Positions 17,742 to 59,919 of a DNA stretch of 64,000 nucleotides are shown here, one piece after another. Made by a program: the position numbers and the translations under genes. Origin of the DNA: Minisyncoccota bacterium (GTDB taxonomy: Bacteria > Patescibacteriota > Minisyncoccia > Phycocordibacterales > UBA9973); assembly GCA_041665925.1 (NCBI GenBank), contig JBAYHW010000001.1, positions 166,685 through 230,684 of the forward strand. The letters are read 5' to 3'. How positions within the stretch are numbered: the stretch's first letter is position 1; each line of letters opens with the position of its first letter. Under the pieces are notes generated by a model that ran no database searches, was not told the origin of the DNA, and saw only the letters and a program-made list of their open reading frames with translations.

Positions 17742-20700
17742 ATGAACAAAGTAAAATATTTATTGTTTGGTCTGCTTTTCGTGTTTTCATTTTTATTTAT
17801 TAATTTAAATACGACTTTTGCCGCTATTGCGTGTACGACGAATAATTGGAATCCTACCGCGGCTAACGTTACATGGAAAACTTCCAGCCAAACTCAGTTA
17901 TTTACCTTAACTCATACATATGTTGATAACAATACTTCCTATACTGAATATGATAGCTGTACGGCTGCGGGAACACATGGGGCTACTTGTACTTCCGACG
18001 GAGTAACCGGTTCAGCACTTGGGCCACAAGATGAATTTGGAATAAGATCATGTTCAGCTTATGGACTTGATGTTATAACTAGTCCACCGAACAAAGTAGA
18101 TACACTTTTGCCAGTTTGTGGGACATGGAGTGGTACTGGACCAACATATACTCTTTCTGGGTCAACAGATCCAGTTGCAAGTGGTACTAGTGGACAAAGT
18201 GGAATAAACACAGCCGGGGGGAGCTGTACAGCTCCTTCTGGGGGAGGGACATGTACAGTAACCATAAGTGACGTTGCTGGAAATACAAAACCATGTACTA
18301 GCCCTACATATACGCCTCCAGCTCTCTCTGTTACAACCAGCGCAGGGGCTAATGTTACTATTTCTCCCACCTCAAGATCAGTAACTTCTGGTTCTACCAC
18401 GACTTTTACCATAACACCAACTTCCGGATACTCTTTTTCTGTTGGGGGCACATGTCCACAAGGGACACCGTTGACGGGAAATTCTTCGACAACCTACACA
18501 ACCGGAGTAATTACAGGAGATTGTTCGGTATCCGTAACTGCGACACAAGCCTCTTATGATCTTTCTGTTTCTAAAACAGGAAATGCTGCAGCTTCCGGCA
18601 CAGTTACTTCTAGTCCAGCTGGTATCAGTTGCGGGTCTGATTGTTCTCAATCTTACTTGAGTGGGACTTCTGTTACACTAACACCTTCATCTCCAGGGTT
18701 TGCTGGATGGAGTGGGGCTTGTACTGGTACGGGATCCTGTACAGTTACCATGAATGCGGCTAAAGCTGTCACAGCCTCATTTCAAAATTATACAGTTAGC
18801 GGAGTAGTCTCTGGTTCAAACGGGACTATTTCTCCATCCTCTAGGTCAGTTGCTCACGGTGCGACTACAACCTTTACAATTACACCAAATTCTGGATATG
18901 TCGCCCAGGGCAGCGATAATTGCTTTATTTACTTTGGCGAAGGGGGGTCACTTTCCGGAACTACTTATACTACAGGATCCATTACTTCAAATTGTACCGT
19001 GACTGCTTCATTTAGTCTTGTAGCCCCATCAAGCATGACCGTCTCTCCTGGGTCTTGTGGTACAGATTTCTTGAACATATCATGGACTGCCGTCGCGGGG
19101 GCTACTAGCTATAATTTATATGAAACAGGAAGTCGGCACGCTGTTGGATCAAATACTTTAATATATAGTGGAAGTAATAGATCTTTTCAGCACACAGGGC
19201 TTGTAGCGGGTTCAACACATTATTATGAGGTTACAGCAGCGGGAAGTTCTAATTATGCAGGGGGGTCAGGAACAGTGGCTTCTGCTTGTACTGTTTCTAA
19301 ACCTACCGTTACCACTACAACTCCAGTTACCAACATAACAACAACTACGGGAACTGGAGGAGGAAGTATTGTTTCCAACGGCGGAGACACCATAACCACA
19401 AGTGGAATTGTCTGGGGCACATCATTAAATCCAACAATTGCCCTTAGTACCAAAACAACCGATGGAGCCAGGACAGGTTCTTGGACAAGCAGTATGACTG
19501 GATTAACCCCAAACACTCTTTATCACGTTCGAGCCTATGCTACTAATAGTGCTGGAACATCTTATGGTAGTGATGTGACATTTACTACTGCTAATAATCC
19601 CGCAACTCCTCTCGACATTGTCGTAAACCCAAACACTTACTCAGCAACTTTACCAAACAGCACCATCTCCGCAATTTACACTCTCACCAACGGAACATCT
19701 GCTAATACAACTTGTAGATTATTGGATAATGTTGGAGCCCCACTTACTACATATGCAGCATGCAATAGTCCAATGTCGGTAACTGCACCCGGAGTAGCAG
19801 GAGACTATTTATATTATATTCAAGCTTTCAAAGCTTCAACCAGTGAAACTAAAACAAGTAATTCTTTTATAGTGACAGTAAACCCAGCGGGCTCGTGTGC
19901 CAATGGGGCCAACAATCCTCCTACTTGTAATGTGTGTACTGCACCACAAGTTTGGGATACCAGCACAACAGCATGTGTAGCCCCTCTAAGTGTTTCAACT
20001 CCCACAGATTCTACTGTCACTCTTCCAACAACAGCGTTTACTGCGGCGTATACATTGACCAATGGTACAGGAACGAATACAGACTGTTATCTGATTGCCA
20101 ATGATGGGGTTACTGTTCTTAAAACAGATCTTACTTGTACCAGTCCAATGAGTTACGACACACCGCCGATAGCAGGGATTTACGGATATTTTATAAAAGC
20201 TGTCAAAGCTCAGACTGGTGAAACTAGAATGAGCAATATGTTTACCGTTACAGTAAATGGAGGAGCGCCTGTGCCTGTGGTAACTCTTTCGGTTTCAACG
20301 ACTCCACCGTCGGGGACTTCAGGTACGGCAGGGGTTATCAACCCTACGCTTATCTGGAGTGCAACTAATAATCCTACAGCATGTACTACTGGTGCTGGTG
20401 ATGATTGGACAACAGGTGGAGCGAAGCCCGTAAGTGGTTCTGAAGCTCAAGGGGTATTGAATATTGTAAAAGTTTATACATATAAATTAACTTGTTCCAA
20501 TACTACCGGTCCTAGTGCCGAAGCTAGTGTGAGCGTGGATGTAACAGGGGGGACCATGGGAGTAACTGGGATGCTTTCTTCAGACAAAGTTTTCTGTGAT
20601 ATTCCTGTCGGTCAAAGTAGCTGTAATGTTCTTTTAAGCTGGAGTACTTCTCCAGCCAATGCTGTACCCGTTTCTGGGGTGAGATCAAATACCAACAACT

Positions 20701-21323
20701 CAGGAGCTGCAAGTTTTGATTTCCATGTTTCTACTCCCGATGAAAATTCCAATGCAGGATTGTCAGTGTCTATTCCATACAATTCTAGAACATTTTTCTT
20801 GTACAACAACGCACAAGAATTAGACGCGCTTAACATAGCTTCACGATGTGATCCTGCTTTTAATCTTAATTGGGATGGGGGTAAATGTGTAGATTCAGCA
20901 GTAGATGGGAGCTGGACCGAATGGGGTCCTTGTAGTGCGGCGAATTCTTGTGGAGCCGTCGGAGAGAAGACTCGTACTTGTACTCCAGCCTCTAATGGAG
21001 GAGTAGATCCTGATCCCGTATGTCCACCTTCATTCACAGAAACTCAATCTTGTAGTTCTATAAAAGATGCAAACATTTACCTTAACGATAATCCTAATTT
21101 AAAGAAAATCACTATTGCTAAAGGTCAATCTGTAAAGATTAACTGGAAGACAGAGTGTTTTACTTCTTGCACGGGAACAGGGGCAGGGTTTACCCCTTCG
21201 GGCACAAGTGGATCACCAACACTTAAGCCTGACGTAACCACTGACTATGTACTTAAGTGTGGCGGTGCAACAGATTTCGTAACAGTTATGGTTAAAGAAA
21301 AAGCAGGTTTTAAAGAAAATTAA
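17742..21323 (+). CDS. giant secreted Thr/Ser/Gly-rich surface protein with FN3-like, InlB B-repeat-like, and TSP1-like Cys-rich modules
   Basis: Signal peptide; repeated ISPxSRSV...TTTFTITPxSGY units; GxCxGxGxC..WSGAC motif; FN3-like W/Y pattern; WTEWGPCSAANSCGAVGEKTRTC near the C-terminus. No LPXTG motif. Lies upstream of the pilus genes. Confidence 0.7.
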   Translation: MNKVKYLLFGLLFVFSFLFINLNTTFAAIACTTNNWNPTAANVTWKTSSQTQLFTLTHTYVDNNTSYTEYDSCTAAGTHGATCTSDGVTGSALGPQDEFGIRSCSAYGLDVITSPPNKVDTLLPVCGTWSGTGPTYTLSGSTDPVASGTSGQSGINTAGGSCTAPSGGGTCTVTISDVAGNTKPCTSPTYTPPALSVTTSAGANVTISPTSRSVTSGSTTTFTITPTSGYSFSVGGTCPQGTPLTGNSSTTYTTGVITGDCSVSVTATQASYDLSVSKTGNAAASGTVTSSPAGISCGSDCSQSYLSGTSVTLTPSSPGFAGWSGACTGTGSCTVTMNAAKAVTASFQNYTVSGVVSGSNGTISPSSRSVAHGATTTFTITPNSGYVAQGSDNCFIYFGEGGSLSGTTYTTGSITSNCTVTASFSLVAPSSMTVSPGSCGTDFLNISWTAVAGATSYNLYETGSRHAVGSNTLIYSGSNRSFQHTGLVAGSTHYYEVTAAGSSNYAGGSGTVASACTVSKPTVTTTTPVTNITTTTGTGGGSIVSNGGDTITTSGIVWGTSLNPTIALSTKTTDGARTGSWTSSMTGLTPNTLYHVRAYATNSAGTSYGSDVTFTTANNPATPLDIVVNPNTYSATLPNSTISAIYTLTNGTSANTTCRLLDNVGAPLTTYAACNSPMSVTAPGVAGDYLYYIQAFKASTSETKTSNSFIVTVNPAGSCANGANNPPTCNVCTAPQVWDTSTTACVAPLSVSTPTDSTVTLPTTAFTAAYTLTNGTGTNTDCYLIANDGVTVLKTDLTCTSPMSYDTPPIAGIYGYFIKAVKAQTGETRMSNMFTVTVNGGAPVPVVTLSVSTTPPSGTSGTAGVINPTLIWSATNNPTACTTGAGDDWTTGGAKPVSGSEAQGVLNIVKVYTYKLTCSNTTGPSAEASVSVDVTGGTMGVTGMLSSDKVFCDIPVGQSSCNVLLSWSTSPANAVPVSGVRSNTNNSGAASFDFHVSTPDENSNAGLSVSIPYNSRTFFLYNNAQELDALNIASRCDPAFNLNWDGGKCVDSAVDGSWTEWGPCSAANSCGAVGEKTRTCTPASNGGVDPDPVCPPSFTETQSCSSIKDANIYLNDNPNLKKITIAKGQSVKINWKTECFTSCTGTGAGFTPSGTSGSPTLKPDVTTDYVLKCGGATDFVTVMVKEKAGFKEN

Positions 21324-25834: not shown

Positions 25835-27580
25835 ATGAAAAAAAATTGTAAAACAATAAAAAGAAATGGCGGGGCAGCGATGCTGATATCTGTTGTATTT
25901 TTTCTTTTTATTTCTTTAGCAATCATCGCGGGACTTGTGTCTCCCACAGTTCGTGAATTTAGAAACGCACTAGATTTGACGAAATCTCGTCAAAGTTTTT
26001 TCCTCTCTGAATCTGGAGTCGAAGATGCGTATTTTAGATTAAAAAAGGCAAAAACAATTGGGTCTTCAGTTTCTCTAACTCTAAATAATAATACTGCCAC
26101 TACAATCATAACCGATTCTGGTTTTAACCAAAAGACGGTATCTTCTTTGGGGGATGTAAATTCTCGTCAAAGAAAAAATGAACTTGTTTTAAATACAGGA
26201 ACTGGAGTTTCTTTCAGCTATGGAGTGCAAGTCGGGACTGGCGGGATTACGATTGGACAGAATGCTGTTGTGAATGGAAGTGTTTACTCAAACGGTGATA
26301 TTACAGGACCTGGATCTATTACAGGCACAGCCTTAGCTGCTAATTCGGCAGCTTTGACAGCAGATCAAGCCAATGGTTCTGGGGCGCCTACCTATGATGT
26401 TACATTTGGAAATGCAAACGGTACCCAAGATTTTGCCCAGAGTTTTTCGGTAAGTACAAACGGGGTGATCAATCAAGTAAAATTATATATCAGGAGGGTA
26501 AGTACACCAGGAAATTTAACAGTAAGAATTGTATCTAATTCAGGTAGTAGCCCAGGAACGACCACTTTAGCATCTGGGCTCTTAGATTCTTCTCTGGTAT
26601 CTGTAAATTATCCAGCAGGTGATTGGGTCAATGTTCCTATTTCACCAAACGCTGAGTTAACGGCAGGAACGACATATTGGATAGTAATTGACGGAGGGAC
26701 CAATTCTAATAAATATTATCAAATTGGGGCAAATTCAAATAGTTATGCTAGTGGTATTGGTAAAATCGGAGCATTTTCTGGAACATGGAATAATACTACT
26801 CCGACTGGGCTTGATGGTTTTTTTCAACTTTATTTAGGGGGACTTACTGGTACTATTAGTAATGTTTCTGTTGGCGCAGGGGTCAAGGGTAATACGTATG
26901 CGCATACGGTAAAAAACTCTAACATTGTCGGAACAAATTATTGTCAAGTAGGTAGTGGAAATAATAAAGCTTGCAACACTTCTTTACCTGATCCTACGCA
27001 AGTAGCTATGCCTATTTCAGATCAAAATATTTTAGACTGGAAAGCCGAAGCCGAAGCCGGGGGTGTATATTCAGGTAATTATGTGGTGGATAGTACCTCT
27101 GTTTCTTTCGGGCCAAAGAAAATTACGGGGAATCTTACCATGGGGAACAGTGGACGTTTAACATTAACGGGTAATCTATGGGTTGAAGGTAACATGGTCA
27201 TAGACAACCATGCTCACATCAACCTATCTTCTAGTTACGGCACCTCAGAAGGTGTAATTATAGTTGATGGAACAGTGAATATAGGTAATGGTTCAGATTT
27301 CTCGGGGTCTGGGTCTGAGGGGAGTTATCTAATGGTACTCTCAACCTCCACTTCTACCGATGCGATAAAGCTTTCAAATAACGGCGGGGCTGTTATTTTG
27401 TATGCTGCAAATGGTACAGTACACTTAGAGAATAACGCCGCCGCGAAAGCATTGAATGGAAAATATATTGTTTTAGATAATAATGTTGACGTGATTTATG
27501 ATAGCGGGTTGGTTAATTCAAATTTTGTTAATGGTCCTTCTGGAGGATGGGGAATAACTTCTTGGAAAGAGGTAGAGTAA
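25835..27580 (+). CDS. large pilus-associated protein with N-terminal TM helix (minor pilin/tip-adhesin candidate)
   Basis: N-terminal hydrophobic helix, then a Gly/Ser/Thr/Asn-rich beta-rich region. Last gene of the pilin cluster. Confidence 0.4.
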   Translation: MKKNCKTIKRNGGAAMLISVVFFLFISLAIIAGLVSPTVREFRNALDLTKSRQSFFLSESGVEDAYFRLKKAKTIGSSVSLTLNNNTATTIITDSGFNQKTVSSLGDVNSRQRKNELVLNTGTGVSFSYGVQVGTGGITIGQNAVVNGSVYSNGDITGPGSITGTALAANSAALTADQANGSGAPTYDVTFGNANGTQDFAQSFSVSTNGVINQVKLYIRRVSTPGNLTVRIVSNSGSSPGTTTLASGLLDSSLVSVNYPAGDWVNVPISPNAELTAGTTYWIVIDGGTNSNKYYQIGANSNSYASGIGKIGAFSGTWNNTTPTGLDGFFQLYLGGLTGTISNVSVGAGVKGNTYAHTVKNSNIVGTNYCQVGSGNNKACNTSLPDPTQVAMPISDQNILDWKAEAEAGGVYSGNYVVDSTSVSFGPKKITGNLTMGNSGRLTLTGNLWVEGNMVIDNHAHINLSSSYGTSEGVIIVDGTVNIGNGSDFSGSGSEGSYLMVLSTSTSTDAIKLSNNGGAVILYAANGTVHLENNAAAKALNGKYIVLDNNVDVIYDSGLVNSNFVNGPSGGWGITSWKEVE

Positions 27581-39198: not shown

Positions 39199-40914
39199 AT
39201 GGAAAAGGAAATAAAAAATTTAATAAAAGATGCGCTTCAGAATCTGACAATAGAGGTAAGCGATATTGTGCTTGAGCATCCTGAAGATTTAAAGCATGGA
39301 GATTATTCTACAAATGTAGCTTTAGCTATTGCGAAAAATATTGGAGAAAACCCGAAGACTTTAGCAGAAAAAATAGCCAAAGAGCTAGAGAGATTAAATG
39401 TAGACAATAATATTGAAAAAGTTGAAGTAGCTGGTTCTGGTTTTATAAATTTTTATTTATCTAGGAAATTTTTTAGCAGGAATATTGAAGAAATTTTAAA
39501 TCAAGGTAACAGTGTCGGTAAAAACGAAATATTTTCCGGTAAAAAAATAATGGTGGAATACACTGACCCGAATCCTTTTAAGCCAGTACATATCGGGCAC
39601 ATCATGACCAATGCGATAGGGGAATCAATCGCTAGAATCCTCGAGCATTCCGGTGCAGAAATTTCACGAGCCAACTACCAGGGCGACATAGGGCTACACG
39701 TGGCGAAAGCTATCTATGGACTTTTAAAAGATACTAAGCTTCAAGATAAGTCCGGTTCACACAATCTCCAAGCGACGAATATCGGGGCAGCGTATGTGCT
39801 CGGGGCTGAAGCTTATGAAAATGACGAAAATGCGAAAAAAGAAATTGAAGAAATAAATAAAAAGATTTATGCTCGTGATGATAAAAAAATAAATGAGATC
39901 TATGATTGGGGCTTTAAGGCAACGATGGAAGCTTTCGAAGATTTATATAAAATTCTCGGAACAAAATTCGACTATTACTTTTTAGAAAGTGCCATGGCAG
40001 ATATCGGCAGGGACGTGGTCAATGCAAATACTGGTGAAATTTTCGAAGAGTCCGACGGGGCTTTAGTTTTTAAAGCAGAAAAACACAATCCTAAACTCCA
40101 TACCCGAGTTTTCATCACTTCTAAAGGTTTACCTACCTACGAAGCGAAAGAGTTAGGTTTAGCTCTGGAGAAGTTTAAAACGGAGCCAAATATGGATTTA
40201 TCTATAGTCATCACCGCCAACGAGCAAGCTGACTATATGCGGGTGGTGGCGAAAGCTCTTTCACTAATCCACCCAGAATATGAAAATAAAATGTTGCATA
40301 TTACGCACGGGATGATGCGCCTGGCTTCCGGCAAGATGTCTTCGAGGAAGGGTAATGTTGTGACGGGGGAAGCCCTGCTTAGAGACACTATCGAGCTTGT
40401 GTCAGAAAGGCTGAAAGATAGAGAATGGAATGAGGAAGAAAAAAATAAAGTTGCAGAAGTTGTCGGGGTCGCAGCGCTTAAATATTCCATATTAAAACAA
40501 TCTACCGGTGGAGATATTATTTATGATTTTGATAAATCTATTTCCTTCGAAGGAGACTCGGGCCCATACCTCGCGTATTCTCATGCCCGAGCGAATTCCA
40601 TTTTAGAAAAAGCGCAAAAAGAAAATATTTTACCAAGTTTTGAAGTTTTGCCTGATGAAACTTTCGAAATAGAAAAATTATTATATAAATTTTCTGAAGT
40701 TGTTCTTCGTTCTGCTTCCGAATATGAACCCCACTATGTTGCAAATTATTTAATCGAAATCGCTCGTGCCTTTAACAGTTTTTACGGGAACAACGTAATC
40801 GTAAACAAAGACGACCCAGCTTCTGCGTATAAAGTAGCTCTTACTTACGCATTTACTTTCATAATAAAAAACGGCCTCCACCTCCTCGGCATCACCGCTC
40901 CCACAAAAATGTAG
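39199..40914 (+). CDS. argS: arginyl-tRNA synthetase
   Basis: Class I HIGH (PVHIGHIM), KMSSRKG, and a DALR anticodon-binding C-terminus. Confidence 0.9.
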   Translation: MEKEIKNLIKDALQNLTIEVSDIVLEHPEDLKHGDYSTNVALAIAKNIGENPKTLAEKIAKELERLNVDNNIEKVEVAGSGFINFYLSRKFFSRNIEEILNQGNSVGKNEIFSGKKIMVEYTDPNPFKPVHIGHIMTNAIGESIARILEHSGAEISRANYQGDIGLHVAKAIYGLLKDTKLQDKSGSHNLQATNIGAAYVLGAEAYENDENAKKEIEEINKKIYARDDKKINEIYDWGFKATMEAFEDLYKILGTKFDYYFLESAMADIGRDVVNANTGEIFEESDGALVFKAEKHNPKLHTRVFITSKGLPTYEAKELGLALEKFKTEPNMDLSIVITANEQADYMRVVAKALSLIHPEYENKMLHITHGMMRLASGKMSSRKGNVVTGEALLRDTIELVSERLKDREWNEEEKNKVAEVVGVAALKYSILKQSTGGDIIYDFDKSISFEGDSGPYLAYSHARANSILEKAQKENILPSFEVLPDETFEIEKLLYKFSEVVLRSASEYEPHYVANYLIEIARAFNSFYGNNVIVNKDDPASAYKVALTYAFTFIIKNGLHLLGITAPTKM

Positions 40915-40952
40915 ACTATACAAGCATTTTTATTAACTAGCGATTTTTGTAC

Positions 40953-40988
40953 ATTCCCCCATTTACGCCATGGCGTAAATGGGGGAAT
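40953..40988. repeat. 36-bp perfect palindrome ATTCCCCCATTTACGCCATGGCGTAAATGGGGGAAT
   Basis: Left 18 nt is the exact reverse complement of the right 18 nt. The right arm plus ATAG recurs at 41386-41409. Confidence 0.9.
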
Positions 40989-41004
40989 AGGATATAATTA
41001 ATGT

Positions 41005-41397
41005 ATGCACAACCAAAAGCAGAAATTTTACAAAGGGGTAAGGGTTAATTCTTTTGGAATTCCCATTTTTACTAAAAACAGAACAAGTCGTTCGAAAAAA
41101 CAAAATAGGAAAAGAGTATTTTATCACAGCACTTTCGCTTCTTCTTTTAAGAAAACTGATCCTAAAAATCTTATCATTATGTACGACATACCCCATAGTC
41201 AAAAAAAAGAGAGAGATTGGTTTCGTCGGCAATTAATAAAGTTTGATTACGTTATGATACAGAAAAGTGTTTGGGTCGGCCCTTCGCCCTTGCCCAAAGA
41301 TTTTCTTGATTATTTGAAAGAAATTAAAATAGGGGATAATTTTAAAACCTTTAAATTGGCAAAATCCTATAATTCCCTCATATCAGCCATGGCGTAA
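41005..41397 (+). CDS. Cas2-like (type II Cas2 / VapD fold) small protein, orphan; possible N-terminal extension (alternative start 41179)
   Basis: LIIMYDIPHSQKKERDWFRRQLIKFDYVMIQKSVWVG closely parallels S. pyogenes/S. thermophilus Cas2 [39 protein letters not shown]. No cas1 or cas9 lies nearby. The stop codon falls inside the second repeat copy. Confidence 0.5.
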   Translation: MHNQKQKFYKGVRVNSFGIPIFTKNRTSRSKKQNRKRVFYHSTFASSFKKTDPKNLIIMYDIPHSQKKERDWFRRQLIKFDYVMIQKSVWVGPSPLPKDFLDYLKEIKIGDNFKTFKLAKSYNSLISAMA

Positions 41398-41409
41398 ATG
41401 GGGGAATAG
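41386..41409. repeat. direct repeat GCCATGGCGTAAATGGGGGAATAG (second copy)
   Basis: Identical 24 nt to 40965-40988. Together they bracket the cas2-like ORF. Confidence 0.9.
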
Positions 41410-41445
41410 TTTTCCACAGTTTTGCTAGGGCTTCTTTAAATTTAT

Positions 41446-44400
41446 GTGATAATTAATTGCATGAAGAAACTCTTATTGTTTGTTTTTGTGTTAAGTATTT
41501 TTGTACCAAAATTTGTATTTGCGGAAACTTATACTGGGGATATTTACATAAATAGTACTGGAGGAGGTAATTGTACTACCATTGGTGTTTGGGACGATGA
41601 AACTAAAACTTGCACTTTTACTAAAGATCTTTTTGGTCCATTGACCATTGGTTCAGTTGGTATTACCATCGATGGTGCAGGCCATACTATGTCCAGAGAT
41701 ACTCAAGCTGCTTTTTTTCAAAGAAATGGAATGACTGTAGGTGGATCAAATTTTGTTTTAAAAAATATTAATGTTAAAGGTTTCACAAACTGCATTATTT
41801 TTAATAATGGTACAATAAATAGCCGTGTGGAGAATTCTACTATTTCTTCCTGTGGCAGTTATGGAATTTACCTACCTGTTTCTTCCGGGGGACATATTTT
41901 TTTAAATAATAATTTTAATCAAAACTTTCTTGGAATTTTTGTAAATTCGTCCAACAATACAATTGAAGGCAACATATTTTCTGCAAATAATACTTATGGA
42001 ATAAGAATAAACAATGCCTCAAACAATATTATCAAAAATAATATTTTAATTGGGAATTTTACAGGAATTCGTTTTGAATATGGTACGGGAAATAGAATTA
42101 CAGAAAATACTATAGAAAATAGCAAGTCTTATGGTTTGTATGCAATTGGTTCTGGGGTAAACCAAAATTATGTTGTAAATAATAATTTTATTAATAATCG
42201 AGATGGACAAGCTTATACATATCAAATCCAATTGTCTGATGTGTCACCAATTGGTGGTAATTATTGGAGTGATTATGATGCGCCGAGCGAAGGATGTAAT
42301 GATTTAAATATTGATAGTATTTGTGATCAACCAAAATACTTGAACCCATACGATCTTTCGTATGGAGACTTTTATCCTTGGGTGAGGAGAGATGGCTGGA
42401 AAACTGACCCTCCAACCTGTTTTGATGGAATAAAAAATCAAGATGAAACTGATATTGATGAAGGTGGAGTATGCAAAGTCCTTAGCTCCGAAAAATCAAT
42501 CGTTTCGTTTAGTTTTGACAATTTAACACCAAAGGTTGTGGGTGTTATTAATGAAGCTGATCACACCATTTCTGCTACTGTTCCTTTCGGTATTGGTCTC
42601 ACAGATCTTATTCCAAGCATAGCTGTTTCAGCGGGAGCATCTGTTAATCCAGAGAATGGTACTTCTCAAAATTTTACTAATACTGTAATGTACAATGTTA
42701 CAGCAGAGGACAAATCAACTCAGGAATACGCAGTTACAGTGACTTCGTCTTGTACTGTTGATTGCTTTTCTAGTGTGCTTTTTTTGCCCGGACTTGAATC
42801 TAGTAGGCTATACACAAACAGAGAAAGTGGGAGTGAAGATCAACTCTGGGAGCCAAATACAAATAGCGACGTGGAGGATTTATATTTAAACACCGATGGA
42901 ACAAGTAAAAATTTAAATATTTATACGAGAGATATTATAAAAGAAACAAATGTTCCAATCCCCGTTGGTTCGGCGGGGCAAAATATTTATAAAAGTTTTT
43001 CGGCGATGATGGATGTATTGTTTGATGATCATAAAATTGCTGAGTGGAAAGAGTTTGCTTATGATTGGCGGCAAGACGTGCAAGATATTATTGAAAATGG
43101 AACAAAATACCAGAATGAAAATAAATCGCTTGTCGCTACACTGCAAGCTCTAGTCGATTCTTCTAAAAATGGCAAAGTCACAATCGTGGCGCACAGCAAT
43201 GGAGGATTGATTGCGAAAGCTCTTTTGAATAAATTACAAGATGATAAAATCGCAGGAATAAATAATTTGATTGATAATATTGATGTGCTTATTTTAGTAG
43301 CTGTACCAGAAATAGGGACTGCGAGTGCTGTGCCTGCGGTGCTGCATGGGTATAAACAAAATCTAATGGGCGGTTTACTTATGGACGAGGCGCATGCTCG
43401 AGAGCTGGGGAGAAATATGATTAGTGCTTTTGGACTTTTGCCAAGTAGGGAATATCTAAATAGGGTCAATGCTTCACCGGCAACTTTTGTGGATACTGTA
43501 ATTCCTTCAAATGTGACAACGAAACTTGTGCAGGCATTCGGGAGTGCTATCAGTTCTTATGATGAATATAAAGATTTCCTATTTGGAAGAGAGGGGAGAA
43601 CAGAGCCGACAATAAATCAAATAAATTTGCCTATTAGCTTATCACAAGATTTATTTACTAAAGCAGAGACTTTGCATAATATTATCGATGAGTGGGTGCC
43701 ACCAGAGAGTCTGCGGGTTGTAGAAGTCGCAGGGTGGGGGCTAGACACTATTGCAAGCTTTGAATATTACCCAAAGATATGCACACAATCGCTTAATTGT
43801 GGTTTCACAATGGACGAAAGGCCTCGCTTTACAGCAAACGGAGACGGAACCGTTGTAGTGCCTAGCGCTCAATATATGAGTGTTGCTGATAATGCGGAAA
43901 AGTACTGGGTAGATTTAAATAGATATAATCAGCTTCAGTTTTCAAGGACAAAACACGCTTCTATTTTAGAAGTAACTTCACTTTTGGATTTTATTTCAAA
44001 CACGATTCAAGAAATAATACCTAGTGACTCTCCATATTTATCTACTACCGAACCACTAGATACATCAAATCGCTTTTATATTTCTATTCACTCACCAGTA
44101 ACTCTAGATGCTTTTGACACAGAAGGAAATCATACTGGTAAAATTTGTCCAACTAACTCAGACTTTTGTTATGTAGAAGAAAATATTCCGAATTCATCAT
44201 ATTTACAATTTGGAGAAGGAAAATACCTTAATCTCAGAGAAGAGCAAATGTTTAAAGTTAAACTTCAGGGTACAGACGTAGGAACATTTACTTATGAGTC
44301 AGAAAAAGTCTTACCTGATGGGACATCCACCACGTCCTCATTCGTAGATATCCCTGTGACGATACAAACACAAGCAGAGATAACATTAAATGTTAATACT

Positions 44401-46223: not shown

Positions 46224-49200
46224 ATGAGCGAAGAAAATACAAATAAATCTGAAGCAGCTTTGCGAGAAGAGCGTATTTTGCAATTTTGGCGCGAGCACAA
46301 AACTTTTGAAAAATCTTTAGCTAAAAAGTCTCCAAAAGGGCACTATGTCTTTTACGATGGGCCACCATTTGCGACAGGGCATATACACTACGGGCACATT
46401 TTAGGCAGTACGGTGAAAGACGTTATCGGCAGATATAAAACTATGCAAGGGTATTATGTGCCGAGAGTCTGGGGCTGGGATTGCCACGGGTTACCTATTG
46501 AGAACATCGTTGAGAAAGAATTAAATATTGCCGGACACAAAGAAATTGAAAAATTAGGTATTGATAAATTTGTGGAGTATGCGCGAAGTAAAGTTCTGCA
46601 ATATGATAAAGATTGGGAAAAGGGGATAGAACGCATCGGGCGCTGGGTAGACTTCCCAGGAGGATATAAGACCATGGACAACACCTTCATTGAGTCCGTA
46701 TGGTGGGCCTTGTCAGAATTTAATAAAAGAAATCTTATTTACGAAGGAGTAAGAGTACTTGCGTATTGTCCGAGATGTGAGACACCGATTGCTAACTCTG
46801 AAATCGCGATGGACAACAGCTATAAAGATATCTCTGATATTTCCGTGTATGTGAAATTTGAGCTTGAGGATGAACCCGGTACGTATCTCTTAGCTTGGAC
46901 GACGACGCCCTGGACGCTCCCTGGGAATACGGCTATCGCTATAAATAAAAACATTGTTTATGTGAAAGTAAAAACCGCCGAGGGAATTTTCATCCTTGCT
47001 AAAGAGACAGTTCCAAACGTTTTAAAAGACAAAGAACACACAGTTTTAGCCGAAGTAAAAAGCGAAGATTTAGTTGGTAAGAAATATAAACCAGTTTTCC
47101 CATATTATCAGAATACTGATGTGGCGAAAAATAAAAATATTTGGCGAGTGTGGCATGCGGACTTCGTAACCATAGAAAAAGGGACAGGAATAGCCCACGA
47201 AGCTCCAGCCTTCGGGGAAGATGATATGAACCTAGCTAAGCAGAATAGTATTCCGTGGATTATCCATGTGGATGAGACTGGAAGATTTAAAACAGAAGTT
47301 ATTGATTTCGCTGGGCAACTTGTAAAACCAAAATCTGCAGAAAAAGATGGGCACCAAAAAGCGGATATTGAAATTATAAAATATTTAGCTAAGGCCAATC
47401 TTCTTTTCGCAAAAGAAAAGATAATTCACTCATACCCTCATTGCATGCGTTGCGAAACGCCGATAATATACTACGCCCTGCCATCTTGGTTTATCAATAT
47501 ACAGAAAGTCAAAGGAAATATTCTTAAACAAGCTAGATACATAAACTGGATTCCTTCACACTTAAAAGAAGGAAGATTTAGAAATATTGCAGAAAATGCA
47601 CCAGACTGGAACATTTCCAGGAATAGGTATTGGGCGAGCCCGTTACCTATTTGGAAATGTGAACAATGTAAAAAACAAACCTTCATCAGTTCCTTAGAAG
47701 ACTTAAAAAACAAAACAAAAAAGTCTGGCAATAAATATTTCGTAATGCGACACGGACAAGCTGAAAACAATGTCACCGATGCGCACAGTAGGGACTTAGA
47801 AATTAATGCCAAATTAACTGAAGTGGGGAGAGGGCAAGTTTTAGATAGTGCTAAAAATATCAAAGATAAAATTGATGTCGTTATCTCTTCTCCATTTAAT
47901 CGGGCAAAAGAGACGATGGAAATAGTGTGTGAGCAAATTGGTTTCCCTGTTGGGAATGTTACATATGATGACAGAATTAGAGAATGGGAAACAAGCACGA
48001 TTTTCGAAGGAAAAGATCGAGCTATTGTGGACAAATATTATGAATTAGACTACTTAGATAATCCGGCAGAGATTCTGGCAGAGGGAGAAAGCTTTGCTCA
48101 AGTGGTAAAACGAGTAGGGCAATTTATCTATGACATAGAGACTAAATATTCAGGCAAAAATATTTTGATTGTTGGGCACGGGGGAGCTACTCAAGCATTG
48201 TGCTTCGTCGTTAAGGGGACGTCTTTTGATTTATTATCCAGCAAAACTAATCCATTTCCGGAATTAAAAAATGCAGAAATAAAAAAACTGGATTTTGTAC
48301 CCCTTCCGCATAATGCTAACTATGAGCTTGATTTACACCGACCGTATATAGATGATGCGGCTCTTGTTTGTGATTGTGGCGCAGACTTAGAACGTATTCC
48401 AGAAGTCTTGGATTGCTGGTTTGAGTCTGGCTCTATGCCATTTGCGCAAGACCACTATCCATTTGAAAATAAAGCTTGGCAGAAAAATAATTTTCCGGCT
48501 GGATTCGTGGCGGAATACATAGGACAGGTTAGAACTTGGTTCTATTACACACACACAGTTTCGACTGTCTTGTTTAACCACACTCCGTTTAAAAATATTG
48601 TCTCTACGGGGACAGTTAGAGCTTCCGACGGTGAGAAAATGTCTAAATCTAAGCACAATTATCCTGACCCGTGGATATTTATAGATAAATACGGGGTGGA
48701 TGCATTGCGTCTCTACTTGATGTCTTCTACATTAATGAAGGGAGAGGATGCCAACTTCTCAGAAAAAACTGTGCAAGAAATTTCGAGTAAAATAGTCGGA
48801 AGACTTTTCAATGTCCTAGCCTTTTATGAGCTCTATCGAGATAAAGAACTAGAAACGGATTATGCCCCAAAATCAAAAAAAATTCTAGATAAATGGATTT
48901 TAGCCAGGTTCTATCAAACACTTAGTGAAATCACTAAAGGCATGGAGAAATACGATATGGCTGAGGCGACGAGGCCCATAGACTTACTAGTGGAAGATAT
49001 TTCTACTTGGTATTTACGACGTTCTCGTGATCGAATTAAAGATGGAGATAGGGAATCGAAGCAAACACTGTATTTCTTATTAAAAAATTTAGCGAGAACG
49101 CTTGCCCCCTTCGCTCCGTTTATGGCTGAAGATATGTGGAGAACATTGAAGAATGATAATGATCCTGAAAGCGTGCATTTAACCAGCTGGCCAAAGAAAA

Positions 49201-49718
49201 GGTTTAGTATTTTTTCTTTTGGTAAACAGAAAATTATGGAAAAAATGGGGACAGTCAGAAGTATCGTGACCTTGGGCTTAGAGGCGAGACAGAAAGCGGG
49301 GATAAAAGTTCGCCAACCATTAAATCACCTAGCTATTGTTGCCGAAGGACTGATGGATGAATACCTTGAAATCATAAAGGATGAGTTAAATATCAAAAAT
49401 ATCTCTTATCTGTTAAAAATAAAATTAGGTATCAGTAAAGTGAACTTGGATACGAATATTACCGAAGAATTAAAACTTGAGGGTGATTATCGTGAGCTGG
49501 TGCGGGCTCTGCAAGACCTAAGAAAGAAAATAGGGCTTACTCCGAGCGACGTCGTAGCACTTATCTTTGAAACAAGCGAAATAGGCAAAAAACTTATTCA
49601 AAAATTCGAAAACGATATGAAGAAAACTGTGCTAGTGTCCAAAATAGAATTTAAAGAAAATGATGGGGAAGAAGTCAAAATAGACGAACTTGATTTCAAA
49701 GTAAAAATAGAAAAATAA
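46224..49718 (+). CDS. ileS: isoleucyl-tRNA synthetase with an inserted histidine-phosphatase (PGAM/SixA-like) domain
   Basis: HYGHIL (HIGH), KMSKS, CP1 editing domain, and the Zn motif WKCEQCKK. About 205 aa (nt ~47700-48330) containing FVMRHGQ, ISSPFNRAKET, and LIVGHGG are inserted between the Zn knuckle and DLHRPYID. Total length 1164 aa. Confidence 0.9.
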   Translation: MSEENTNKSEAALREERILQFWREHKTFEKSLAKKSPKGHYVFYDGPPFATGHIHYGHILGSTVKDVIGRYKTMQGYYVPRVWGWDCHGLPIENIVEKELNIAGHKEIEKLGIDKFVEYARSKVLQYDKDWEKGIERIGRWVDFPGGYKTMDNTFIESVWWALSEFNKRNLIYEGVRVLAYCPRCETPIANSEIAMDNSYKDISDISVYVKFELEDEPGTYLLAWTTTPWTLPGNTAIAINKNIVYVKVKTAEGIFILAKETVPNVLKDKEHTVLAEVKSEDLVGKKYKPVFPYYQNTDVAKNKNIWRVWHADFVTIEKGTGIAHEAPAFGEDDMNLAKQNSIPWIIHVDETGRFKTEVIDFAGQLVKPKSAEKDGHQKADIEIIKYLAKANLLFAKEKIIHSYPHCMRCETPIIYYALPSWFINIQKVKGNILKQARYINWIPSHLKEGRFRNIAENAPDWNISRNRYWASPLPIWKCEQCKKQTFISSLEDLKNKTKKSGNKYFVMRHGQAENNVTDAHSRDLEINAKLTEVGRGQVLDSAKNIKDKIDVVISSPFNRAKETMEIVCEQIGFPVGNVTYDDRIREWETSTIFEGKDRAIVDKYYELDYLDNPAEILAEGESFAQVVKRVGQFIYDIETKYSGKNILIVGHGGATQALCFVVKGTSFDLLSSKTNPFPELKNAEIKKLDFVPLPHNANYELDLHRPYIDDAALVCDCGADLERIPEVLDCWFESGSMPFAQDHYPFENKAWQKNNFPAGFVAEYIGQVRTWFYYTHTVSTVLFNHTPFKNIVSTGTVRASDGEKMSKSKHNYPDPWIFIDKYGVDALRLYLMSSTLMKGEDANFSEKTVQEISSKIVGRLFNVLAFYELYRDKELETDYAPKSKKILDKWILARFYQTLSEITKGMEKYDMAEATRPIDLLVEDISTWYLRRSRDRIKDGDRESKQTLYFLLKNLARTLAPFAPFMAEDMWRTLKNDNDPESVHLTSWPKKRFSIFSFGKQKIMEKMGTVRSIVTLGLEARQKAGIKVRQPLNHLAIVAEGLMDEYLEIIKDELNIKNISYLLKIKLGISKVNLDTNITEELKLEGDYRELVRALQDLRKKIGLTPSDVVALIFETSEIGKKLIQKFENDMKKTVLVSKIEFKENDGEEVKIDELDFKVKIEK

Positions 49719-59079: not shown

Positions 59080-59919
59080 ATGACCCCAAGATACATAGAC
59101 ATACACTCACATGTAAATTTTACAGCCTTTGATGCAGACAGAGGGGAGGTGATGAAGCGGGCAGAAGAGAACGAAACTATTGTGATAAATGTTGGCACCC
59201 AGATAGATACTTCACGTAAAGCCGTAGAGATGACGGCTCAATATGACAATTGCTATGCAATAATCGGGCTACATCCGATACATACTGGGGCGTCCTACCA
59301 CGACACCAAAGAGCTCGGAGAAGGCGGGAAAGAATTTACTTCTCGGGGAGAAATTTTCGATCAAGATGCTTATGGCGAACTTTTGAAAAATCCGAAGACT
59401 TTAGGAATAGGGGAATGCGGGCTGGATTACTACAGGTGTGACGAAGAGTCAATTTCTAAACAAAAAAAAGCGTTAATCGCACAAATAGAACTTGCAAATA
59501 AATTTAATAAACCAATAATGTTGCATCTTCGCAACAACCCAACAGATAAAACTCGCAACGCATTTTTTGATGCACTTGAATTATTGAAGGAGCACTCAAA
59601 AGTAAAAGGTGATGTGCATTTTTTTACGGGGGGAGTTGAGGAAGCAAAAGCTTTTCTAGATTTTGGTTTTACATTGTCTTTCACAGGGGTTATTACCTTT
59701 ACTCACGATTATGATGAAGTCATAAAAAATACACCGCTTAATATGATTATGACGGAGACAGACTCTCCGTACGTATCCCCGGTCCCACACAGAGGAAAAA
59801 GGAATGAACCTTCTTATGTGCGAGAAGTTGTCAAAAAAATCGCTGAAATTAAAGGATTACCCGAAGCCGAAGTGGCAGAGGCTATTATCGCGAATGCTAA
59901 GCGAGTTTTCGGGATTTAA
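59080..59919 (+). CDS. tatD: TatD-family metal-dependent DNase
   Basis: IDIHSHVNF...; conserved metG-tatD synteny. Confidence 0.85.
   Translation: MTPRYIDIHSHVNFTAFDADRGEVMKRAEENETIVINVGTQIDTSRKAVEMTAQYDNCYAIIGLHPIHTGASYHDTKELGEGGKEFTSRGEIFDQDAYGELLKNPKTLGIGECGLDYYRCDEESISKQKKALIAQIELANKFNKPIMLHLRNNPTDKTRNAFFDALELLKEHSKVKGDVHFFTGGVEEAKAFLDFGFTLSFTGVITFTHDYDEVIKNTPLNMIMTETDSPYVSPVPHRGKRNEPSYVREVVKKIAEIKGLPEAEVAEAIIANAKRVFGI

Follow-up and report, generated by a model that had tools for sequence, protein, structure and literature searches.

A small gene at positions 41005-41397 of the 64-kb stretch of Minisyncoccota bacterium DNA analyzed here (referred to as the window) is bracketed by two copies of a palindrome, and the same bracket was found around 37 related genes from different species. 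The two repeats are most likely 20-bp palindromic binding sites (dyads) for the protein encoded between them, as judged by sequence comparison. We give slightly better than even chances to the view that this protein belongs to the PaaX/Cas2-fold superfamily and is a small, dimeric, site-specific DNA-binding protein that regulates itself and has few sites in the genome. Together with the two dyads and its leaderless promoter, the gene makes up a single conserved unit whose internal geometry is kept while the neighboring genes change, and the sequence of the dyad diverges together with that of the protein. In the window, the unit consists of the following features.

40953-40988, no strand assigned: upstream dyad, a perfect 36-bp palindrome with zero loop (ATTCCCCCATTTACGCCA followed directly by TGGCGTAAATGGGGGAAT), proposed operator
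40961-40980: 20-bp core of the upstream dyad (ATTTACGCCA followed directly by TGGCGTAAAT), with its center between 40970 and 40971
40993-40998, plus strand: TATAAT -10 box, read from the sequence, 6 nt before the A of the start codon
41005-41397, plus strand: gene for the 130-amino acid (aa) protein, with Y60-D61 encoded at 41182-41187 and the candidate specificity residue H64 at 41194-41196
41372-41409, no strand assigned: downstream dyad, a 38-nt copy with its core (ATATCAGCCA followed directly by TGGCGTAAAT) at 41380-41399 and its center between 41389 and 41390

The original prediction for this locus had described a 24-mer that occurs twice, with the first copy embedded in a perfect 36-bp palindrome, and an open reading frame (ORF) between the copies. 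These observations are exact, as GCCATGGCGTAAATGGGGGAATAG is present at both 40965-40988 and 41386-41409, the palindrome occupies 40953-40988 and the ORF is real. The repeat extends further than had been described, since the second copy is really a 38-nt version of the whole palindrome that shares 89% identity with the full upstream palindrome plus AG. The right 24 nt are identical, and the four changes all fall in the left arm (ATTCCCTCATATCAGCCA), which is of the TCAGC type and is paired with the same right arm as in the upstream copy. Because the stop codon (TAA, 41395-41397) falls within this second copy, the final five residues of the protein (..ISAMA, in the tail ..LISAMA) are palindrome-encoded. 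The 36-mer did not occur in 100 shuffles of the window, and the 64-kb window contains no further copies of the core at up to two mismatches or of the arm at up to three mismatches. The center of the upstream dyad is 35 nt 5' of the ATG, and the dyad spans the promoter's -35 and spacer region. With TATAAT only 6 nt before the ATG, the mRNA is predicted to be leaderless and to start at or next to position 41005. A two-hexamer consensus scan did not report this promoter because it has no good -35 hexamer.

Thirty-eight loci encoding relatives of the protein were taken from species-representative genomes. Every locus that was complete on both flanks had a palindrome on each side of the gene, and the downstream copy, which was present in all 33 family loci checked, was located from 8 nt before the stop codon to 37 nt after it. 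Where the downstream copy overlaps the stop codon, it encodes ..ISAMA or ..ISAIA. The longest exact word common to the 100 nt of upstream flank and to the downstream flank had a median length of 16 nt and was at least 12 nt long in 26 of 37 loci, compared with a median of 7 nt and a maximum of 11 nt for control flanks of the same loci. Perfect GC-containing palindromes in the gene-anchored loci were found almost exclusively beside the family gene. Palindrome length in the family ranges from about 20 to 44 bp, with conservation limited to the central 20 bp. The geometry of the promoter is similarly constant: in about 30 related loci, the center of the upstream dyad is 35-37 nt 5' of the start codon and the TATAAT box occupies +23 to +28 relative to that center. 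Among 37 family loci, the box matches TATAAT at six of six positions in 23 and at five of six in 11, and is separated from the ATG by 6 nt in 24.

The genes next to the unit vary among the 38 loci (EF-G, PAP2 phosphatase, L32, Pol I, helicases, membrane proteins and others). In the window, argS ends at 40914, 5' of the unit, and the 3' neighbor encodes a secreted beta-helix/LCAT-like protein; L013 is the only one of the 38 loci that has the argS and beta-helix genes of the window. In L159, which encodes a protein 88% identical to that of the window, the gene order (tmk-dut-argS-gene-beta-helix) is also that of the window. The upstream dyad is identical in L159 and the window despite diverged flanking intergenic DNA. 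Both dyad copies in L159 are perfect palindromes and the protein has the tail ..PIYAMA, with the window differing at four clustered positions in one arm. A role for the protein as the regulator of a conserved neighboring gene was considered and rejected, as neither the neighbors nor the spacing between the downstream dyad and the following gene is constant.

The 130-aa protein combines features of PaaX and Cas2. Its best Pfam match is PaaX_M, the "Cas2-like" domain in the middle of the PaaX repressor (PF20803; 49.3 bits, 5.4e-13, cut-off of 24, residues 52-118). The resemblance to type II-A Cas2 that had been noted originally is borne out by the top PDB matches from Foldseek, which are type II-A Cas2 proteins (probability 0.96-0.99) with E. 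coli PaaX at rank 25, and by weak profile matches to Pfam CRISPR_Cas2 (31 bits versus a cut-off of 23.8), to TIGR01573 (cas2, NCBIfam; 26.5 bits versus a cut-off of 24.5, over just 37 residues, 56-92) and to PADLOC Cas2_II (2.4e-7), but PaaX_M scores higher than these profiles. The match to TIGR02277 reaches just 16.2 bits versus a cut-off of 264.55, there is no match to PaaX_C and the protein ends 12 residues past PaaX_M. A sequence search of the PDB with the protein gave nothing significant. Many members of the family, including the proteins of the window and of P0001, P0009 and P0023, are labeled "CRISPR-associated endonuclease Cas2" by the NCBI annotation pipeline (PGAP), and JGI labels them PaaX; the NCBI name results from the partial TIGR01573 match just above its cut-off. 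Our searches recovered 1,723 homologues, of which the best 120 are 115-162 aa in length, share 68-88% identity with the query over 85-100% of its length and come from metagenome-assembled genomes (MAGs) of Paceibacterota/Nomurabacteria. An alignment of 34 members has a mean column identity of 68%. Since the homologues are full length and highly identical, the ORF is intact and strongly constrained, and the possibility that it is a truncated pseudogene was rejected on the same grounds (full-length homologues with 70-88% identity).

A profile search of 1.8 billion representatives indicated that the short form accounts for a handful of 50%-identity clusters, and that most relatives are 155-200 aa long (365 clusters, E<1e-10). 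The long relatives are modeled as a winged helix followed by a Cas2-like domain (pLDDT 87.6), and their best structural matches are E. coli PaaX (8a39, the top match) and Rv0674 (3kfw). In the alignment, the extra helix 1, the recognition helix and the wing of the long relatives are all deleted in the window protein, which has just a beta-hairpin and a disordered basic linker before its Cas2-like domain. Residues invariant in both short and long forms are D61 (in MYDIP), R70, W72, R74, Q86 and the motif VW.GP.PLP; Y60-D61 is invariant in 34 short forms, and position 60 is Y or F when the long forms are included. The family is thus one of small PaaX-like, Cas2-fold proteins of Paceibacteria that are closer to the middle domain of PaaX than to Cas2. 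Within it, the alignments indicate that the window protein is a shortened derivative of a "mini-PaaX" family that has kept the YKG..VN.FG.P hairpin and the Cas2-like domain.

Evidence that links the dyads to the protein comes from divergent members of the family, as other subfamilies carry other palindromes and each variant is present on both flanks of the gene. Among short forms, L031 has three copies of TTCACCATGGTGAA and L098 has CTCCACCATGGTGGAG. Among long forms, L035 has TTCACCATGGTGAA, L036 has TTCGCCATGGCGAA, L034 has AGTGACACA-N5-CTGCATATGCAG-N5-TGTGTCACT and L037 has a 36-nt direct repeat, and L118, L162 and L163 have further palindrome variants on both flanks. In L036, the TTCGCC variant found on both flanks of the family gene is also carried by the site before a neighboring gene for a Cys-rich protein.

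The residue that follows the invariant Asp-Ile-Pro (H64 in the window) tracks the center of the upstream dyad across 48 distinct short-form proteins. Proteins with a CATG center have H (28 proteins), S (3), A, I or Y or, in a single case, E at this position, and those with a TATA center have E (7) or D (3). The mutual information for residue 64 is 0.67 bit, with the next column at 0.33 (Fisher test 3e-9, uncorrected for phylogeny). The E/D class is polyphyletic, because several of its members have H-type nearest neighbors (72-82% identity). A similar association was seen with the palindrome-encoded tail, which can be scored from the protein alone: H-like proteins end in ..AMA (43) or ..AIA (4), and E/D proteins in ..AIA (9) or ..AM(A/V) (3). 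In a prospective test on fresh proteins, three of three E64 proteins had a TATA or TATC center, as predicted, and a T64 protein had TCAACCATGGTTGA. The equivalent Tyr-Asp pair of Cas2 is found at the interface of the dimer, where the two Asp residues are 6.5-15 Å apart (PMC9510766), so a residue three positions further on could reach the two central half-steps of the dyad. One MAG (PFRK01; loci L002 and L019) encodes two paralogues, one of which has CATG sites on its flanks and the other TATA sites.

The symmetry of the sites bears on what form of the nucleic acid is recognized. The centers of 66 sites in the gene-anchored loci are CATG (37), TATA (20) or asymmetric (9), so that 57 of the 66 are self-complementary. 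A self-complementary center would be unable to pair in the loop of a hairpin, and its symmetry therefore favors a symmetric dimer that recognizes the DNA as a duplex. Symmetry also extends beyond the conserved bases. In 197 distinct non-coding sites, positions +/-8 are complementary in 85% versus 34% expected and are barely conserved, and positions 11-15 are complementary in 60-70% versus 29-46% expected, falling to background beyond position 17. The 18 in-gene sites have no complementarity past +/-10, and in 11 of 52 contigs the sites differ from one another in their +/-8 bases. Co-variation without conservation, together with the differing +/-8 bases within contigs, suggests either hairpin-templated homogenization or a role for an extruded structure. 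Hybrid sites, in which a TCAGC half is joined to a TACGC half, occur as often as pure sites, and beside the gene they are uniformly oriented relative to it. The comparison of the window with L159 would fit conversion of one arm and lends support to such a process.

Copies of the dyad are not confined to the family gene. Contig scans were done with the pattern ATNTACGCCATGGCGTANAT, which represents one core variant only, and matched at least 120 stretches of metagenome contigs with at least 133 sites; the same pattern had no matches in 2.9 million viral contigs. About one-third of the matches listed flank a family gene, and the remainder are intergenic or occur in genes at recurring positions, with about one-third of the matches listed falling within called ORFs. 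The in-gene dyads among the matches listed are in genes for a comFC-type phosphoribosyltransferase (7 loci), in folA (5), in the last codons of fmt (4), and in uvrC, rsmI and tatD (2 each). They are in frame, mostly read L-R-H-G-V-D/N and occupy the same codon positions in several genomes in which the synonymous flanks have diverged. Positions +/-8 of the in-gene copies change symmetrically (CTA..GAT, TTA..AAT, ATA..TAT) despite amino-acid changes at both ends, and a symmetric change at such a cost implies selection on the DNA itself. The TatD protein encoded in the window (59080-59919, plus strand) has LHLRNNPTDKTRNAF where those of L084 (766-1608) and L109 (1381-2250) have the palindrome-encoded LHIRHGVNHIENNAY. 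The dyad-less TatD segment is located at the LH.R motif and has the same length, and TatD of L109 is 75% identical to that of the window. As the segment is of equal length with or without the dyad, the tatD site arose by substitution and not by insertion. Insertion of a palindrome into genes, in the manner of the Rickettsia palindromic elements, was therefore rejected for tatD. In the other approximately 240 kb of gene-anchored loci, extra copies are few and all are near the gene (L027, L031 and L036). The genes at or near the remaining dyads have ordinary housekeeping functions that share no single theme, and a functionally coherent regulon was rejected.

Other dyads accompany tandem genes for a Cys-rich protein of approximately 590 aa, where they are either 16-66 nt 5' of a gene start or between adjacent copies. 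This Cys-rich family has no Pfam or NCBIfam match and forms tandem arrays of two or three paralogues that are 30-48% identical (L064 2421-4196, L061 961-6137, L010 3459-5198, L036 955-2691, L157 1781-3445, and others); in several loci a Cys-rich gene adjoins the Cas2-like gene. Intergenic pairs of a CATG dyad and a TATA-type dyad, at distances of 27-93 nt and without an intervening family gene, were seen in L045 (4327/4354), L054 (1555/1618), L067 (8014/8107), L091 (10517/10573), L095 (7500/7549) and L138 (246/280). The TATA-type member of the pair is GATA/TATC in L045 and L138, and the region 15-232 of L057 holds four dyads.

If the dyads are indeed binding sites of the protein, the recognized site would be the 20-bp dyad AT-N-TACGC-CATG-GCGTA-N-AT, with TCAGC as an accepted alternative half-site. 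A dimer of the protein on the upstream dyad would block RNA polymerase and thereby bring about autorepression, as PaaX does at its own Px promoter. For PaaX, the operator is palindromic and the repression of its own promoter comes about through steric hindrance of RNA polymerase (PMC9493321). The Cas2-like dimer axis, with Y60-D61 and with H64 in the beta1-alpha1 loop, would lie over the center of the dyad, and the outer half-sites would be contacted by the basic N-terminal arm, or by the winged helix in the long relatives. The downstream dyad may be bound as well, in which case the two sites could be joined by DNA looping, or the downstream one could serve as a roadblock shielding the gene against transcription from its neighbors. 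The remaining dyads (before the Cys-rich genes and in comFC, folA, fmt, uvrC, rsmI and tatD) would be further targets for regulation or for chromosome organization.

Several observations weigh against the idea that the protein is an autoregulator that binds these dyads. Every mechanistic step is inferred from sequence comparison, and the window protein is without the recognition helix and wing that its long relatives and PaaX use to read DNA. We know of no precedent for a 20-bp read-out by a basic arm, a beta-hairpin and a Cas2-like domain. The promoter has no recognizable -35 hexamer, so the site could act positively and not negatively, and simple autoregulators do not usually have a universal second site on the 3' side of the gene. 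A dimer that contacts 20 bp explains neither the complementarity without conservation at positions 11-15 nor the symmetry of positions +/-8 even where the sites of a single contig differ. The association of residue 64 with the dyad center has exceptions too. L153 has E with a CATG center, three of the 12 E/D proteins end in ..AM(A/V), and L003 and L153 mix the two center types, one on each flank. The prospective test failed for a D64 clade (P0093/P0110), which has a CATG center and an ACACC half-site; the simple rule that E or D at position 64 means a TATA center was rejected accordingly, as it holds for E and fails for this D64 clade.

An alternative to the binding-site reading is that the protein is a site-specific nuclease or recombination factor whose Tyr-Asp center cuts the center of the dyad, with site, gene and site together being a movable cassette, selfish or domesticated, similar to RAYT/REP elements or integron cassettes. 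The invariant D61 and the Y or F at position 60 match the Tyr-Asp pair required for the DNase activity of Cas2, although nuclease activity varies between Cas2 orthologues (PMC9510766) and this inconsistency counts against the alternative. A gene located between two copies of the site of its own protein is typical of mobile elements, the context of the family gene differs between genomes, and the Cys-rich genes are likewise bracketed or separated by dyads. Exchange at the center would be expected to produce hybrid sites, which are common (TCAGC joined to GCGTA, TACGC joined to GCTGA, ATAT..AAAT), and four positions of one arm changed at once between the window and L159; dyad pairs 27-93 nt apart without a gene between them could be read in the same way. 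We nevertheless consider this alternative unlikely. Each genome has one or two copies of the gene, the loci in the window, L159 and L013 are syntenic, and the number of dyads is very low, with no further copy in the 64-kb window and few in the approximately 240 kb of loci. The tatD dyad replaces a sequence of equal length, with no insertion or target duplication, the in-gene copies keep their codon positions in several genomes, and the protein has no recombinase or transposase fold. An origin of the unit in a mobile element or phage was rejected given the absence of core matches in the 2.9 million viral contigs and the synteny of the unit in L159 and L013. A bolder variant, which we regard as quite improbable, is that the Cas2-fold domain is a sequence-specific reader, and possibly a cutter, of double-stranded palindromes: the Tyr-Asp dimer axis would dock on CATG or TATA, H versus E at residue 64 would set the specificity for the center, and cleavage and rejoining would swap half-sites and move site-gene-site cassettes, making the protein a free-living relative of the repeat handling of CRISPR adaptation in bacteria of the candidate phyla radiation (CPR).

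The dyads could instead be bound by another factor, such as a global regulator or a chromosome-organizing protein, with the Cas2-like gene being merely one of its targets. Low-copy palindromes inside housekeeping genes recall parS/ParB or Noc-binding sites, and this analogy, together with the finding that about two-thirds of the at least 133 exact metagenome sites are not beside a family gene and that the short form has no canonical DNA-reading head, is in keeping with a different binder. Such a factor would leave unexplained why divergent members each have their own different palindrome on both flanks, why a residue of the Cas2-like protein tracks the dyad center and why the bracket follows the gene through unrelated contexts, which makes this possibility a rather unlikely one. 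A role of the palindromes at the RNA level, as terminators, insulators, or processing or stability sites cut or bound by a Cas2/VapD-type ribonuclease, appears very unlikely. RNase activity is known for Cas2 and VapD proteins (PMC9510766), a strong RNA fold is predicted for the upstream copy (-27.7 kcal/mol, z -5.1), the outer arms co-vary without conservation, and the downstream copy would be at the 3' end of the gene's own mRNA. The downstream copy in the window, however, folds no better than shuffles (z -1.0), and the upstream copy lies 5' of the predicted transcription start and thus outside the transcript of the gene. Moreover, the four central bases, which could not pair in a loop, are self-complementary in 57 of 66 sites, hybrid sites would have a 2x2 internal mismatch, no terminator-like T tract was found at the locus, and the window has no match to an Rfam family. 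An intrinsic terminator was rejected because no terminator-like site was found in 40700-41700 and the second copy is a weak hairpin.

The least probable readings, and extremely improbable ones in our view, are those that treat the repeats as relics: attL/attR-like scars of an integrated element, a miniature transposon that carries cas2 and has abutted terminal repeats, or a CRISPR-Cas locus in decay. The original prediction had offered the first two of these, and the 24-nt exact direct repeat around one small gene, the weak Cas2 profile matches and the PGAP name are consistent with such a history. The comparative data already contradict them. The bracket is ancient and family-wide, recurring at the 37 related genes and kept in the syntenic L159 locus (88% protein identity), its distance to the -10 box is fixed, and the protein is intact and strongly conserved. 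No integrase, transposase, array or other cas gene was found, the tatD copy occurs without a change in length, and an integrated element or miniature transposon was rejected since no integrase or transposase is nearby and the unit is at the same place in L159 and L013. The claim that no cas1, cas9 or array is nearby held up, as the 64 kb contain no CRISPR-like tandem repeats and the large and neighboring ORFs have no cas match; the same searches, together with the lack of an Rfam match, led us to reject a CRISPR remnant. The TIGR01573 match spans 37 residues only (26.5 versus 24.5 bits), and because palindrome length varies in the family (approximately 20-44 bp, with only the central 20 bp conserved), the agreement of 36 bp with the length of type II CRISPR repeats, which had been pointed out originally, is incidental. 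The neighbors of L159-L161 within 10 kb are housekeeping genes, with no cas genes found near these relatives, and no conserved partner emerged from the clustered neighbors of the 38 loci, which were not individually scanned for cas1. The third option in the original prediction, a stand-alone Cas2/VapD-like nuclease, comes nearest of the three. The protein does appear to be a stand-alone Cas2-like protein that matches Cas2 profiles, with its repeat recurring at other loci, and any nuclease activity is putative. A VapD or other toxin-antitoxin module was rejected for want of a conserved operon partner, as the immediate neighbors differ by locus.

A few other features of the window were noted. 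A DnaA-box-like word, TTTTCCACA, is located at 41410-41418 directly 3' of the downstream dyad, and the aligned position has TTTTCCACA in L159 and TTATCCACA in L013. A link to an origin of replication through TTTTCCACA was rejected because such boxes are not enriched in the window (6 versus 8.2 expected). The beta-helix/LCAT-like gene on the 3' side probably starts at ATG 41461 (MKKLLLF.., resembling a signal peptide), with the ORF list giving GTG 41446 as the start, and since an extended -10 box, TGTGATAAT, ends 7 nt 5' of ATG 41461 (41445-41463), this gene also looks leaderless. The isoleucyl-tRNA synthetase encoded at 46224-49718 (plus strand) has a histidine-phosphatase domain (His_Phos_1) inserted at residues 506-670, as do those of L159 (15219-19190) and L163 (2066-3381, ending at the locus edge). 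Two large ORFs, 17742-21323 (plus strand, 1193 aa) and 25835-27580 (plus strand, 581 aa), match no Pfam or PADLOC family, and their only matches are a weak arabinosidase-like stretch and a choice-of-anchor R domain (NCBIfam).

The domain described here is already recognized by Pfam and the proteins are held in databases; a full-text literature search found no paper on the Cas2-fold PaaX-like family or its palindromes. What is unusual about the family is the loss of the reading head, the two-site bracket, the sites in housekeeping genes and the presence of a candidate specificity residue beside the "catalytic" Asp of Cas2. The Cas2 label that PGAP gives to family members inflates counts of CRISPR components in Patescibacteria, where the proteins instead represent a separate, PaaX-related family with predicted DNA sites of its own. 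Gene regulation in Patescibacteria is very poorly known, and the family offers a test case with a 20-bp site, a leaderless promoter, a candidate specificity residue and a short list of additional sites in housekeeping genes; with a protein of 130 residues, the predicted site, residue and targets can be tested in vitro. If the Cas2-like domain does read the center of the dyad, this would be a new mode of DNA recognition for the Cas2 fold and would bear on the origin of the partnership between Cas2 and palindromic repeats.

Comparison with known systems places the unit among several that it resembles in part. The C proteins of restriction-modification systems are small dimeric autoregulators with a palindromic box over their own promoter and a leaderless mRNA. 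The family unit would have the same autoregulator layout by analogy, but the fold differs, as C proteins are helix-turn-helix proteins, and they are not known to have a downstream site or dispersed copies; no restriction-modification gene is present at the locus. The parS sites of ParB and the sites of Noc are also analogous in being short, perfect palindromes that are few per genome, tolerated in coding DNA, conserved at the DNA level and found at the gene of the binding protein. The proteins are not homologous, however, no link to an origin or to parA has been shown, and some family dyads are near gene starts in an operator-like position. RAYT/REP systems likewise have a single gene bracketed by palindromes that are present elsewhere in the genome. 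The window protein differs from RAYT in being Cas2/ferredoxin-like, with no HUH/Y1 transposase fold and no match to a transposase family, and the family dyads amount to a handful compared with hundreds, with several in frame in genes and the tatD copy present without a change in length.

The closest resemblances are to Cas2 and PaaX. In the Cas1-Cas2 complex, Cas2 sits on double-stranded DNA as a dimer, and the family has conserved two features of Cas2, especially type II-A: the Tyr-Asp that ends beta1 and the (I/V)Q..SV(W/F) motif. Unlike Cas2, the window protein has an extra conserved N-terminal hairpin and basic linker, and the family gene is accompanied by two copies of one palindrome, not by a repeat-spacer array, with no cas1 or cas9. 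PaaX (Pfam PaaX, PaaX_M and PaaX_C; PDB 8a39, 3l09 and 3kfw) is a repressor of phenylacetate catabolism with which the family has PaaX_M in common. The window protein is without the effector-binding PaaX_C domain, helix 1, recognition helix and wing of PaaX, and its site is a contiguous 20-bp dyad whereas the PaaX operator is TGATTC-N27-GAATCA; a second downstream site and copies in housekeeping genes are not known for PaaX, and no paa genes are near the window gene. The long relatives keep the PaaX order of a winged helix followed by a Cas2-like dimerization domain, and the geometry of the dyads at the family promoters is consistent with autorepression in the style of PaaX.

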